From an uncultured Candidatus Peribacteria bacterium (GTDB taxonomy: Bacteria > Patescibacteriota > Gracilibacteria > BD1-5 > UBA6164), in contig CAYUZH010000004.1 of the NCBI GenBank assembly GCA_964449635.1, positions 1-27,083 on the forward strand: 27,083 nucleotides of DNA. The letters are read 5' to 3'. Positions 10,109 to 14,580 of this stretch are shown one piece after another; the stretch's first letter is position 1; the number at the start of each line of letters is the position of its first letter. Under the pieces are notes generated by a model, which saw only the letters and a program-made list of their open reading frames with translations, did no database searches and was not told the DNA's origin. Position numbers and translations under genes: made by a program.

Positions 10109-10221
10109 AATTTCATTTAAAATATAAATACAAAACAAATTTTATAAAAAAGTAGACTGAAAGCAAGAGGAAAATATAATATGATTTGATTTTAAAGAGA
10201 ACCTATTACACTTACTTTAAT

Positions 10222-10851
10222 ATGAAAAAGAAGCTTCTCCTTATAGTACTTTGCCTCAGCTGAATTCTCTTCACCGTTTGAGTAAATTTATTTATTGTCA
10301 TATCTACAAAACCATTTATATCAAATACTCTTGAAAATATTGGAGAAAATCGTGTATGAATTGTTCTCTGAGCAAAGGTAAAAATAGGCGGTATTCCTTC
10401 TGATATTCTCAAAGACCGACTTGATGGAAGTATCAATGCTTATAAAATAGGGAAAATTCAAAGAATTATTGTTTCTGGGGACAATAGTACTGTCGAGTAC
10501 GACGAACCAACCGTTATGAAAGAGTATTTAGTAAAAAATTGAATCTCTGAAAAAGATATCTCCCTTGATTACGCTGGATTTGATACCTATGACTCACTGT
10601 ACAGAGCAAAAGAAATCTTTTGAGTTTCGAAAATAACTATTTTTACTCAGTGATTTCACCTTCCAAGAAGTGTATTTATTGCTCAAAATATCTGAATAGA
10701 TGCTCTTGGATTTGCTACCGACTATCACATCTATACTTCTGAGAGAAAAAATGAATTTCGTGAAACATTTGCCCGATTGAAAGCATGGTTTGATGTGAAA
10801 ATTTGGCACTCAAAACCGAAGTTTTTGGGAGAACCTATAATAATTAAATAG
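10222..10851 (+). CDS. SanA/ElyC (DUF218) envelope protein, 209 aa
   Basis: N-terminal TM, IVL(G)A, LKDRLD, IIVSGDN, YDEPTVMKEYL, LDYAGFDTYDSLYRAKEIF, TQ(G)FHLPRSVFIA, REtfARLK. Confidence 0.92.
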
Positions 10852-10869: not shown

Positions 10870-11553
10870 ATGAAACTTCTTTTTTTGATTCCTCCTTCTG
10901 AAGGAAAATCTGCGGGCGGAAATCTCCCATCAGAATCGCTCTCTTATGATTTTAAGAAACCTTTGAAAGAGATACACCATCTTTCTGAGAAAGATTTAAA
11001 ATGTAAATGAAAAAGGTACAATGAAGCTTTAGAACTCAATAAAAATATATTTTCTTGACCATTTATGCAGGCCATCGAACGCTATAACGGAGAGATGTTT
11101 AAAGCGATAGATTATAAAACCCTCTCAGAAGAAGGAAAACGCTTTTTTGAAGAAAGTATTCTCATTGTATCTTCTATGTATGGTCTTGTAAAACCACTCA
11201 ACTATATCGGAAACTATAAACTCCCGATAGAAGCAAAAGGATGTATCAAATTTTGGCAACCGATTATAACAAAAACTCTTAGCCAAGTTGATAGTGATAT
11301 AATCATAAGTTTTCTCCCTGAAAGCTATCTGAAAGTAATTGATATCAAAAAACTCAAGAAACCTTTTATCAAAGTCAATTTTCTTACTTTAAAAAATGGA
11401 AAAGAAATGAAAATGGCACATGGGAGTAAAAAAGTAAAGGGAGAATACATACGAAATATTTGCGAAAAACAACTTTCTGATTTTAATACCTTTTGAGGGA
11501 AAATATCCCAAGAAAACTCCATAACCAGTGTCAACTTTTATGAAAATACCTAA
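10870..11553 (+). CDS. yaaA: YaaA/DUF328 peroxide-stress DNA-binding protein, 227 aa
   Basis: LIPPSEGK, AIERYNGEMFKAID, SSMYGLVKPLNYIGNYKL, SKKVKGEYIR. Confidence 0.88.
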
Positions 11554-13255
11554 ACTCCTTAAAAAGAAAGAAAAAGAAGAAAAAGATAACACAAAACACC
11601 AGAATATCCCTCTCTTTTTTCTTTCTTTTTTTGATACCTGTTCTAATATAAAAATATTTCCTTGCCGCAGAGCTCTCTACTATCCAGCTTTTTTCCTTGC
11701 GTTTTATTGTATTCTGCTCGTTTTCGCAAAAGAAATAGAATGAGTCCTTACTTTCCCTATCGTTCTTTCAAAAAGTGAGGAAATCGCTGGAATTACTCCT
11801 CCAAGACTTTGAGGAGAACATTTTTTGATACAAACAAAAAACAATACTCAAATTCATGGAGTATTTTTGGATAATAAAGCAAAAAAAACTATTTTTTACT
11901 TTCATGGAAATGGAGCTCCTCTTCCCTATTTCATAACTGATTTAGAATTTTTTAGTGATCTTTGATACAATGTTATGAGTTTTGACTATCCTTGATATGG
12001 GAAGAGTACATGATTTCCTTATGAATCAGAAGTATACAACTCTATGAATGAATTTTATAGATATGTAAAAAAAGAAAAAAATCTTAAAGACGAAGATATT
12101 ATTGCTGTATGATATAGTGTCGGAAGTGCTCCTGCTATTGAATTTGCGAACAAGAGAAGTATCGCTGGCATTATACTTATCGCTCCATTTACTTCTCGAT
12201 ATGATTTGAGTTTTGCTGTTTATGGTTGGTATGTTCAAAAAGCTTTTTTTCTCCCTGATTCTTTTATAAATAGTACAAAAATCCAGTCTATAACAGCACC
12301 TCTTCTTTTTATCCATGGAAACGAAGATACTATTATCCCGATTAAGTTTTCAAAAGAACTTTATAGAACTTCACAAAACAACGCTTCTTTCATAGAAATT
12401 GATAACGAAGGACACAATAATATCCTTGATAACTATAAAAAAACTCTTTCCATTGCTCTTTCAACTTTTATAGAGAATAAAAAACTCGCCCAAACTTTCT
12501 ATTTTATTAACAAAAAAGATGAAGAATTTTTTAAAGAAAACTCTTTAAATACAACAGGAAGTTGAGAACATATTATTGAGAAAAAAAATATATTCGAAAC
12601 AACAGAAGTAAGTAGTAATGAAACAAATCAAATTATTTTACCAAAAACGGATTTTAAACTTCCTGATGGATACGTAAACTCTTTTGATCTCGATTCAGAT
12701 TCTTCCTATACAAAATTTGTAAATAACTATATAAGTTATAGTAACTCAAGTTATGTACCAAATAACCTTGTAGCCATAGAATCTGACTATATTTATAGTC
12801 AAAAAGGAAGTGCCTTTTTAAGAGAAGAAGCAAAAGAGGCTCTCGAAAATATGTGACGTGATTTTTACAATACTTTTGGAACAAAAATTTGAATAGCGAG
12901 TTCTTATCGTAGTTATGAGTATCAAAAAGGGATTAAAGATCGTTGATGTTCTGACTCACTTTGTGCAAACCCTGGGCATTCTGAGCATCAAGCAGGGCTT
13001 GCTATCGATGTTTTTGAAGCAACAAGTGAAAATGAATTTTTAAAAAAATCTGATTTAAAAAACTATTTCTGGTGGATGAAAAGAAATGCTCATAAATACT
13101 GATATCATAATACCTACCAAAAATGAACAAAAGTAGATGGTTACATGAAAGAACCTTGGCACTGGAGATATATTTGAATAGAACTTGCCACTTTTTTACA
13201 CGATAACAATATCACTTTTGCAGAATATTATAGTGCGATTCATGATATGAAATAA
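11540..13255 (+). CDS. membrane-anchored alpha/beta-hydrolase fused to an M15B (VanY-like) D-Ala-D-Ala carboxypeptidase, 571 aa
   Basis: One frame with no TAA/TAG. FHGNG, FDYP(G)YGKS, (G)YSVG, IHGNEDTIIP, GHNN are followed by ASSYRSYEYQ, PGHSEHQAGLAID and EPWHWRYI(G). Confidence 0.9.
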
Positions 13256-13256
13256 T

Positions 13257-13289
13257 AAAATAGCTCCGAGGATTTCTTGGAGCTATTTT
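13257..13289. terminator. bidirectional intrinsic terminator
   Basis: AAAATAGCTCCGAG-GATTT-CTTGGAGCTATTTT between convergent genes. Confidence 0.8.
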
Positions 13290-13513
13290 ATTTCAGATTG
13301 TTTTCTTATTTCTTCTTCTTTTATTTCTCTTTCAACTTCATCCTCAATTTCTTTTTGAGTCATAATTTGAGTCAACATAGATTTTCTTTTCTTTTTTTCT
13401 CTTTCTGAGAAAATATACGACTTCGTTGCAAATACAAAAGGAACTATATAAAAGATAGCTATTATTATACTAAAAACTAGCAAAAGAAATATTGATTTTC
13501 ATAGTATTCACAT
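13283..13513 (-). CDS. small membrane protein with a charged coiled-coil tail, 76 aa
   Basis: M(G)IL(G)KSIFLLLVFSIIIAIFYIVPFVFA...EIEDEVEREIKEEE; the ATG at 13513 is reached only through TGA codons. Confidence 0.7.
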
Positions 13514-13584
13514 TCACAAAAACGGAGTAAGATGTCAAAGTATTTGCGAAGTATTTGCATACGTAAATTGAATTCAAAACATAT

Positions 13585-14580
13585 TTATTTTTGAGGAACT
13601 AATTTTGCATTTACAACTAGTCTTTTTAAAGTTGTTCCTATTGGCCAACAAGTCATAACAGAAAGCTCTGCTTCTTTACTCTCTTTCTTTAAAACAGAAA
13701 CATCTCCTGGAGTAATGGTTGTTTTTCCTTGAACTTCATATACAAATTTCTTTTGTTTGTAGTATACGATGATTTGGTCTCCATTTTCCAAGTGATCAAG
13801 AAGAGCAAATACATCATTATATTCTCACGGAACCCATGGGAAATTTGACGAATGTCAAAAGATAAAGGCATTTCATTGATCTCATGGTTTTGCACTTCCA
13901 GGATAACGAATGACTCATTTTTCCAAATCTTTCATAAATATATCCTCAAGTTCACTGTGACCAGAGACGACTTGTTGTTTAATATCAAGAAGTGGAATAT
14001 TTTTTCAAATTTTTGGTATAATGATTCTATTTTCATACGGAGTAATATCAATATCAAGAGAAACATCTTCTTCATTTGATTTTGCAAGAAGTTGATTAAT
14101 AGAATGTTGATTTCCTGATTTTGTTTCAAGTTCTTGAGCTTTTTTTTGATACTCTCCATCACTGAGAGAAAGGCTTCCAGCTTCTACTGAAGAGATAATA
14201 CTTTCTTTACTTTTTTCAAGAGAACCTGAGAATACATAGCTTTGTATAAGAGAGAAATAGGCACTATAGTTTGATGTTACAAGAAGAACAACAAAAATGA
14301 GAGATGAAGTTGTCACATATCTCACAAGAAAGAAAAATCAGAGAAATATTTTAGATACTGGCTTTTTTTCTTCTCTATGATGTTTCTTTTTCTTATCTGA
14401 AATAAGTAGTTCACATTCCGTTTTTGCTTGTTCAAGGGTCGTATCAAATCAAAGAAGTATTTCTGCTGTATGATCAATAGAATCTATTGATTTCAAAGGT
14501 TCTTCTTTTCTGAAACTTTCTTCTACTTCTATGACAAAACTATTTAAGATATCTTCAAAATTATCATTATTTTTTTTCAT
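13585..14580 (-). CDS. sortase, 331 aa
   Basis: ORF fragments 14005-14325 and 13585-13791 join in frame; IIIPKI(G), AFIFGHSSNFPW (His), LSVMTCWPIGTTLKRLVV (Cys, Arg); single TM anchor. Confidence 0.92.

Follow-up and report, generated by a model that had tools for sequence, protein, structure and literature searches.

A recoded Gracilibacteria gene joining a membrane-anchored serine hydrolase to an M15B zinc carboxypeptidase, and its proposed role at the cell's own wall

Introduction

What is the function of a protein in which a serine hydrolase and a zinc carboxypeptidase of the peptidoglycan-trimming kind follow one another behind a single transmembrane (TM) anchor? This question is raised by a gene located at positions 11540-13255 of a contig from an uncultured, ultra-small Candidatus Peribacteria bacterium (CAYUZH010000004.1, assembly GCA_964449635.1), of which 27,083 nucleotides, called the window here, were analysed. 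The gene is read with TGA as a glycine codon and encodes an N-terminal alpha/beta-hydrolase (ABH) domain and a C-terminal M15B (VanY/LdcB-type) domain. The reading that we favour, and consider reasonably probable, is that of a membrane-tethered enzyme trimming the stem peptides of the cell's own wall and equipped with an accessory head of the esterase or lipase type; we are more confident of the M15B part, and have little confidence in any one substrate for the ABH head. Gracilibacteria, members of the candidate phyla radiation, are uncultured, recoded and host-dependent, and to our knowledge no aspect of their envelope biology has been tested.

Reading frame and reality of the fusion

Under translation table 25, the frame at 11540-13255 (+) runs uninterrupted through 571 codons and a stop (13253-13255), with 13 in-frame TGA codons read as glycine, whereas table 11 splits it into 14 pieces. 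Its parts are listed below, with confidence given as the predicted local distance difference test (pLDDT) where it is low.

11540..13255, + strand: whole coding sequence of the anchor-ABH-linker-M15B protein, TGA = Gly; 571 amino acids (aa), about 62 full-length homolog clusters
11540..11671, + strand: basic N-terminal tail, residues 1-44, predicted cytoplasmic; Lys-rich, low pLDDT, K/R enrichment across the family
11672..11728, + strand: TM anchor, residues 45-63, predicted N-in/C-out; mean Kyte-Doolittle hydropathy 2.07 over 19 residues
11768..12538, + strand: ABH domain, residues 77-333, with a small lid; Pfam Abhydrolase_1 and Hydrolase_4, VIA structure matches
12539..12673, + strand: disordered Asn/Ser/Thr/Glu-rich linker, residues 334-378, with one TGA (Gly342); low pLDDT
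12674..13252, + strand: M15B (VanY/LdcB-type) zinc carboxypeptidase domain, residues 379-571; Pfam VanY, PDB 4mph/4jid at E 1e-24

A word-indexed search over 5.8 billion clusters retrieved about 62 full-length fused relatives (450-590 aa, 32-85% identity, 81-100% coverage), nearly all of which contain both Pfam families, and an exhaustive profile search of 1.84 billion representatives gave about 16 fused representatives at 50% clustering. Both halves lie in one open frame in 12 of the 25 searched genomes of the window's GTDB family (f1), including the closed genomes G006, G019 and G023. The glycines of the GxSxG motif in the hydrolase are TGA codons in most fused loci and appear in database translations either as G or as W, the latter being the table-4 reading; judged from such codon comparisons, the assignment of TGA to glycine is independently supported.

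An artefact would require either an assembly misjoin of two genes or a true TGA stop, at Gly342 of the linker, that has been misread as glycine. It is true that one of the 13 TGA codons falls within the linker and that the window is a metagenome-type contig of a genome in 88 contigs. However, the junction contains no TGA in six fused loci, invariant glycines are encoded by TGA throughout the gene and the genome, and the M15B part that follows the linker lacks a start codon plus export signal of its own. Because the same continuous frame is conserved across independent clusters and genomes and the junction is free of TGA in those six loci, a misjoin or the read-through of a true stop is excluded, and the probability of an artefact is negligible. 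An earlier interpretation made from the letters of this DNA without database searches (the sequence-only reading) had described the 571-aa frame and quoted its motifs, all of which were found at their positions under table 25; its worry about a chimera is settled by the conservation of the architecture in independent clusters and in closed genomes. It had also called the gene invisible in table-11 annotation, which holds for that table, but public databases do contain table-25 or table-4 translations of the relatives, some of them named automatically as [quoted passage not shown] (NCBI) or "LdcB / pimeloyl-ACP methyl ester carboxylesterase" (JGI).

The M15B zinc carboxypeptidase domain

The C-terminal domain matches VanY (PF02557; MEROPS M15B) over residues 426-546; the score is 90.1 bits (cut-off 25, E 1.3e-25), and profile positions 3-131 of 132 are covered. 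Its active-site segments are as follows, with SpLdcB standing for LdcB of Streptococcus pneumoniae.

12899..12925, + strand: S454-x-x-R457...Q462 (SYRS...Q), invariant; Arg457 = SpLdcB Arg120, role from PMC4087270
12947..12964, + strand: Cys470-x4-Cys475 just ahead of the first zinc ligand; likely disulfide
12980..13009, + strand: SEHQ...D, invariant, with putative zinc ligands His483 and Asp490 = SpLdcB His153 and Asp160
13151..13162, + strand: EPWH, that is Glu538, Pro539, Trp540 and His541 (third zinc ligand), all four invariant

Ser454, Arg457, Gln462, His483, Asp490, Glu538 and His541 are conserved across 63 homologs. In SpLdcB, active-site roles have been assigned to Arg120, His153, Asp160, Tyr201-Met202, Glu204, Trp206 and His207 (PMC4087270), and the remaining members of this set also map one to one onto the window protein (Tyr535-Met536 = Tyr201-Met202, Glu538 = Glu204, Trp540 = Trp206 and His541 = His207). 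The best structural match is LdcB of Bacillus anthracis (BaLdcB; 4jid/4mph), with a VIA Z of 22.6, a root-mean-square deviation of 1.8 Å over 168 residues and 34% identity; Foldseek gives E 1e-13 to the same protein, the two-subdomain fold of the LAS type is present, and B. subtilis LdcB (4ox3) is also among the best matches. VanY-B and VanXY are clearly more distant (23-25% identity, 45-51 bits). None of the curated NCBIfam models was reached, neither that of LdcB (NF041194, 60.2 bits against 275) nor those of VanY/VanXY (NF000473, NF000472 and NF000380; 62.4 against 400, 52.3 against 425 and 60.2 against 250, respectively). Since no model comes near its cut-off, the domain belongs to the M15B superfamily and is not to be filed as either LdcB or VanY. 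The sequence-only reading had named it a VanY-like zinc D,D-carboxypeptidase; the M15B assignment with all of its catalytic residues stands, but the closest solved relatives are LdcB-type LD-carboxypeptidases.

The resemblance to LdcB/DacB (4mph/4jid, YodJ 4ox3 and S. pneumoniae 4ox5) comprises the fold, the zinc ligands, the Arg/Glu/Tyr-Met/Trp active-site residues and the extracytoplasmic, membrane-tethered location, and the same chemistry, namely release of the C-terminal D-Ala from stem peptides, would be expected. The window protein differs from these enzymes in possessing the CxxxxC pair and a whole serine hydrolase domain earlier in the chain. Furthermore, LdcB acts on tetrapeptides supplied by DacA, whereas no DacA-type enzyme is detectable in the window's lineage, so the window enzyme may act on pentapeptides as well. 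VanY and VanXY (5hnm, 5zhf, 4oak and 4f78) likewise share the M15B fold and catalytic set, and VanY is an enzyme anchored to the membrane whose substrates are membrane-bound precursors with a D-Ala-D-Ala end (PMC12419801). A DD role is plausible for the window enzyme because no other DD-carboxypeptidase was found. Unlike VanY/VanXY, however, the window gene is a core chromosomal gene of its lineage rather than a resistance accessory, and no van operon genes (vanH/A/X or vanR/S) lie near it.

The CxxxxC pair is shared by all of the 75 fused M15B domains compared and by 19 of 26 stand-alone domains from Gracilibacteria, but by none of 10 outgroup proteins; the seven stand-alone domains that lack it all come from family f14. 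Cys470 and Cys475 probably form a disulfide, which would fit an oxidising, extracytoplasmic location.

The serine hydrolase domain

The N-terminal domain scores 56.8 bits against Abhydrolase_1 (PF00561; cut-off 25.8) and 54.4 bits against Hydrolase_4 (PF12146; cut-off 27), in both cases over residues 113-222, and contains the complete set of catalytic motifs (invariance refers to the 63 homologs).

11903..11911, + strand: HGN oxyanion-hole motif, His122-Gly123-Asn124; H122 and N124 invariant
12110..12124, + strand: GYSVG nucleophile elbow with Ser193, Gly191 being TGA; Ser in 62 of 63 homologs and a gap in the other
12314..12328, + strand: HGNED with catalytic Asp263; H259 and D263 invariant
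12410..12421, + strand: GHNN with catalytic His292, invariant

The fold matches 6imp and 5lcn with VIA Z values of 24.9 and 24.6 over about 235-240 residues. A near-tie is seen at Z 21-25 among the MARTX ABH (6imp), the Pyrococcus esterase Pf2001, monoacylglycerol lipases, feruloyl esterases, thermophilic lipases and S9 catalytic domains, to all of which the identity is 11-22%. In the model the lid measures about 35 residues, and the ABH core follows the anchor without a further domain in between. No match to Peptidase_S9 was obtained with Pfam at E<=0.01, and no ABH equivalog in NCBIfam was reached (BioH, MenH, polyhydroxyalkanoate depolymerase, macrolide esterases and proline iminopeptidase), the best score being 50.8 bits against 300. 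By sequence and fold comparison, the head is classed as a generic small-lid serine hydrolase of the carboxylesterase/lipase kind (COG1073, "FrsA-like").

Among the small-lid carboxylesterases and lipases (Pf2001, 5g59/5lcn; the MARTX ABH, 6imp; monoacylglycerol lipases; feruloyl esterases), the likeness extends over the fold (Z 21-25), the HG oxyanion motif, the GxSxG elbow and the Ser-Asp-His order. The window domain differs from them in being only 13-21% identical, in matching no curated NCBIfam equivalog, and in its insertion between a membrane anchor and a peptidoglycan carboxypeptidase. Stand-alone, TM-anchored relatives of the head, about 270 aa in length and named FrsA/COG1073 by JGI, were also found in further families of the class and outside the phylum. 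Tandem ABH-ABH proteins of the same hydrolase subfamily, 527-609 aa in length, were also observed (P0331, P0371 and P0362). The pattern of lid and Asp-loop presumably resembles that of Bem46/ABHD13/ABHD17.

Membrane anchor, linker and topology

The model of the window protein places a helix at residues 41-61, and 59 of the 63 homologs possess a strong hydrophobic helix about 58 residues N-terminal of the HGN motif; the four others are N-terminally truncated. Lys and Arg are enriched ahead of this helix across the family (3.9 before it versus 1.5 after it), and by the positive-inside rule an N-in, C-out orientation is therefore predicted. The sequence-only reading had spoken of an exported two-headed enzyme. 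Two catalytically complete heads outside the cytoplasm fit this description, but the helix indicates that the protein is membrane-tethered and not released.

Both domains are confidently predicted in the AlphaFold model (63 homologs; mean pLDDT 88), and pLDDT falls below 50 only in the linker stretch 334-363 (334-347 and 356-363) and in the N-terminal tail. Across the family the linker measures 3-53 residues, with a median of about 12, and is often a charged helix; the long Asn/Ser/Thr-rich form is seen only in the small clade to which the window protein belongs (P0001-P0006). A short-linker homolog reaches a predicted template modelling score (pTM) of 0.76, compared with 0.61 for the window protein, which might be a weak hint at a fixed arrangement of the two domains. 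A predicted complex between the ABH half and the M15B half of P0024 scored 0.00, which is evidence neither way.

Peptidoglycan and D-alanine in the lineage

Published Gracilibacteria genomes encode a complete peptidoglycan pathway and a sortase and lack lipid synthesis (PMC6851277; PMC11452946). Similarly, the genome to which the window belongs (1.08 Mb, 81% complete) contains Mur ligases, three transpeptidase domains of penicillin-binding proteins (PBPs), MraY and Ddl, all with in-frame TGA, and its only VanY domain is that of the window's gene. Peptidase_S11 and Peptidase_S13, the families to which DD-carboxypeptidases usually belong, were below cut-off in all 41 genomes of the order (this genome and 40 relatives, G000-G040; 35 of the 41 are at least 90% complete), in a search that did not cover DD-carboxypeptidases of other types, such as beta-lactamase-fold enzymes of the PBP4* type.

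Alanine racemase was above cut-off in 17 of the 41 genomes. It is patchy in the family, bears no relation to the fused state and is undetected in about half of f1, including the closed genomes G007, G018 and G019; Ddl is present in the window's own genome. Scavenging of D-Ala was considered as the reason why M15B belongs to the core of the lineage, and was discarded as a general explanation on account of this patchy distribution unrelated to the fused state.

Distribution and evolution of the fusion

In a sample of 151 genomes spread evenly across the class, the fused frame was limited to f1, and stand-alone M15B genes were present in f1, f2, f14 and f27; stand-alone ABH relatives were found mostly in families whose matches hold no in-frame TGA. 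In a tree of 111 M15B domains, those of Gracilibacteria form a single clade (support 99) with f14 basal. Within f1, fused and stand-alone forms interleave with 13 state changes, at least six of which are forced by well-supported branches, and genera g12 and g19 each hold both states. An M15B match was obtained in 24 of 24 other f1 genomes searched. A family hidden Markov model search of the DNA adjoining stand-alone M15B genes detected no ABH remnants, and these stand-alone relatives carry TM or lipobox anchors of their own. The ABH of the fusion is undetectable in many members of f1, closed genomes included.

Five fused representatives (P0247, P0248, P0249, P0252 and P0273) have lost the HGN, Ser, Asp and His of the hydrolase and kept every M15B residue; their dead heads may be pseudo-enzymes or decaying domains. 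In other relatives the head is replaced: P0259, from the same recoded lineage, is a 418-aa DUF218-VanY fusion with the CxxxxC motif and a TGA-as-Trp composition, and P0356 (742 aa) has an M23 peptidase ahead of an M15B module of the same clade. Because heads are lost, dead, or replaced by DUF218 or M23, the carboxypeptidase appears as the constant part of these proteins, and the head as variable and dispensable. The M15B module was also seen at the C-terminus of proteins of 783-2223 aa that contain no other Pfam domain (P0285, P0355, P0320 and P0318).

In the literature, no paper describing the ABH-M15B architecture was found, and the relatives carry automatic names only. The statement of the sequence-only reading that it knew of no characterised protein with this architecture agrees with this result, but the arrangement is shared by many proteins and is a recurrent, evolutionarily unstable variant within one Gracilibacteria family. 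What is new is the optional serine hydrolase head on a carboxypeptidase of the LdcB/VanY type, in a lineage seemingly devoid of PBP-type carboxypeptidases; both domain families are known. In a genome of the window's genus (G001, locus L091), the fused protein is about 39% identical to that of the window and the neighbouring genes are 46-81% identical; by this pairwise comparison, the fusion protein evolves faster than its surroundings.

Gene neighbourhood

The fusion gene is the last of a co-directional run of three genes, and the best promoter-like site lies just 5' of the first one, at 10153-10180. Two further genes lie downstream of the run.

10186..10851, + strand: DUF218 (Upr-like/SanA-ElyC family) gene, first of the co-directional run DUF218-YaaA-fusion; Pfam DUF218 79 bits
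10870..11553, + strand: YaaA (peroxide stress protein family) gene; Pfam H2O2_YaaD 116 bits, stop overlapping the fusion start by 14 nucleotides
13283..13582, - strand: small conserved membrane protein, 99 aa, with one TM segment and a charged C-terminal tail, between the fusion and sortase genes
13585..14580, - strand: sortase gene, convergent with the fusion gene; Pfam Sortase 86.9 bits

In a preprint (10.64898/2026.10.14.759067), DUF218 proteins (SanA and ElyC, renamed Upr-like) are reported to hydrolyse lipid II and to free nascent glycan strands on the outer side of the membrane; their genetics has been described as well (PMC12176290). A homolog lies directly upstream of the fused gene in G011 and nearby upstream in G001. 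Like the window protein, DUF218/Upr-like proteins would be membrane-anchored extracytoplasmic enzymes of nascent-wall metabolism, and in P0259 such a domain occupies the N-terminal place that is held by ABH in the window protein, before the same M15B module. Their fold and chemistry (phosphoacetal hydrolysis) are different, however, and DUF218 is a neighbour and an alternative fusion partner, not a part of the window protein. YaaA is located one gene upstream of a stand-alone M15B gene in G002.

The small membrane protein and the sortase recur beside the M15B gene, whether fused or not; homologs of the former (27-39% identity) adjoin a sortase gene in 10 related loci, and no sorting signal of the LPxTG type was found in its 99 residues. 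The other neighbours are of the housekeeping kind (MiaA, PilB, endonuclease III, prepilin peptidase, L33, RRF, NUDIX, signal peptidase I and TruB), and no secretion system, toxin-immunity pair or mobile element is seen in the gene context.

Proposed role and alternative explanations

The presence of peptidoglycan genes, the sole VanY domain, the lack of S11 and S13 matches, the housekeeping context and the link to DUF218 together point to maturation of the cell's own nascent wall. In the model that we favour, the protein would be a single-pass, N-in/C-out tethered ecto-enzyme that is active outside the cytoplasm of a Gracilibacterium with TGA = Gly. In the M15B head, His483, Asp490 and His541 would hold the zinc ion, Arg457 would bind the new carboxylate, and Glu538 would position the substrate and the water molecule, and the head would cleave off the C-terminal D-alanine of stem peptides, either in lipid II or in nascent peptidoglycan of the cell itself. 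Since no PBP-type DD-carboxypeptidase was found in the lineage, we infer a VanY-like step from pentapeptide to tetrapeptide, and perhaps an LdcB-like step from tetrapeptide to tripeptide; the DD step is thus a probable activity of the enzyme, and the LD step a possible one. The Ser193/Asp263/His292 head, predicted to lie within about 15 residues of the membrane surface, would most likely hydrolyse an acyl ester at the interface between membrane and wall, and would be an accessory module that has been lost, has decayed, or has been replaced by DUF218 or M23 in relatives. The analysis establishes the frame, the genetic code, the domains with their catalytic residues, and the conservation, distribution and synteny of the gene; the topology, the own-wall substrate, the DD and/or LD specificity and the substrate of the esterase head are deduced.

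Several points weigh against this model. The N-in/C-out topology is predicted from hydropathy and charge only, the DD and LD specificities are not separable from sequence, and S9 catalytic domains align to the ABH head at a Z of about 22, nearly equal to the esterases. The window's own genome is 81% complete, and the evidence that class C PBPs are absent therefore comes mainly from the relatives. In addition, synteny with DUF218 was observed in only three of 11 fused loci.

The sequence-only reading had raised possible action on the host wall, in an epibiotic lifestyle. As a tool directed at the host, the enzyme would remove D-Ala from the stem peptides of the host and cleave its esters or lipids, thereby weakening the host envelope or harvesting nutrients at the contact site. 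Gracilibacteria are indeed thought to be host-dependent and unable to make fatty acids (PMC6851277; PMC11452946), the best fold match of the ABH head is a toxin-borne domain of the phospholipase A1 (PLA1) type (6imp, Z 24.9), the same M15B module ends very large proteins in the lineage, and external D-Ala could be useful where alanine racemase is undetectable, as in about half of the family. However, the enzyme is held by a single TM tether and its linker is short (median about 12 residues, about 50 at most), so that it could hardly reach beyond the wall of its own cell. The organism makes peptidoglycan itself, for which the window enzyme is the only detectable stem-peptide carboxypeptidase; the housekeeping neighbourhood, devoid of secretion-system, toxin-immunity or mobile genes, and the operon and fusion links of M15B to DUF218, which point to the cell's own lipid II and nascent glycan, argue in the same direction, and the presence of alanine racemase is unrelated to the fused state. 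Action on the host wall thus finds no support, and a host-directed function is distinctly unlikely. The ABH head could alternatively serve the scavenging of lipids independently of the wall, as a (lyso)phospholipase or monoacylglycerol lipase that frees fatty acids or lysolipids and that is fused to M15B without a shared substrate, both being membrane-tethered exo-enzymes. Such a function would suit bacteria that lack fatty-acid and lipid synthesis (PMC6851277), and is compatible with the position of the modelled head beside the membrane surface, with the matches at Z 21-25 to the PLA1-type ABH, monoacylglycerol lipases and thermophilic lipases, and with the related stand-alone TM-ABH proteins in the lineage and beyond, as well as the tandem ABH-ABH proteins. 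On the contrary, because many members of the family, including those with closed genomes, have no detectable copy, the ABH cannot be a general lipid route; moreover, the triad is dead in five fused representatives, no adjoining lipid-uptake genes were seen, and the identity to lipases is only 13-21%. We therefore consider lipid scavenging unlikely.

A third possibility is that both heads act on the same stem peptide, ABH being a serine peptidase or amidase of the S9/S33 kind that cooperates with M15B in degradation for turnover or recycling. Hydrolase_4 is the Pfam family labelled "serine aminopeptidase S33", catalytic domains of S9 acylaminoacyl-peptidase and S9 carboxypeptidase are the ones that reach the Z of about 22, and one relative has an M23 endopeptidase in place of the ABH head. 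The very short helical connector of most homologs, together with the higher pTM of the short-linker homolog, would also suit a fixed arrangement of the domains, but pTM by itself does not show contact. The head lacks the beta-propeller or cap that gives S9 and S33 enzymes their selectivity for peptides, having only the lid of about 35 residues; Peptidase_S9 is not among its Pfam matches, its top matches in fold and sequence are carboxylesterases and lipases, and it is dispensable or dead in many relatives in which M15B is intact. Degradation of the stem peptide in two steps is accordingly very unlikely.

Within the favoured model of own-wall trimming, it is tempting to speculate that the membrane-proximal head in front of M15B is an interchangeable unit for the handling of precursors, filled by a DUF218/Upr-like lipid II hydrolase in some genomes and by ABH here. 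The ABH head would then act on a lipid- or ester-linked wall precursor, or on a host-derived membrane lipid that carries it, in a reaction coupled, within one polypeptide, to the trimming of D-Ala by a carboxypeptidase that may be the only one acting on stem peptides in these cells. We give this extension only a small chance; if true, it would constitute a compact terminal step of wall maturation specific to bacteria that lack class C PBPs and are unable to make their own lipids.

These proteins do not represent a new kind of system, as both domains come from well-known families and the fusion is evolutionarily unstable. Nevertheless, f1 and neighbouring families seem to depend for the trimming of their stem peptides on one M15B enzyme in place of the customary carboxypeptidases of the PBP type. 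Through operon structure and through fusion, this enzyme is connected with various enzymes of the membrane surface, namely a serine hydrolase, DUF218 and M23. If confirmed, this arrangement would provide a simple and testable picture of wall maturation in a minimal cell, as well as a natural system for asking what the widespread TM-anchored COG1073 hydrolases do.

TGA as a sense codon in related families

The window gene illustrates clearly how TGA can encode catalytic glycines, and also how annotation under table 4 or table 11 distorts proteins of this kind. In-frame TGA was present in the matches of f1, f2, f14 and f27, and absent from those of several other families of the same GTDB class; in G033 and G037, which belong to f2, this gene is nonetheless free of in-frame TGA. 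The use of TGA as a sense codon thus seems to vary among the families of the class.

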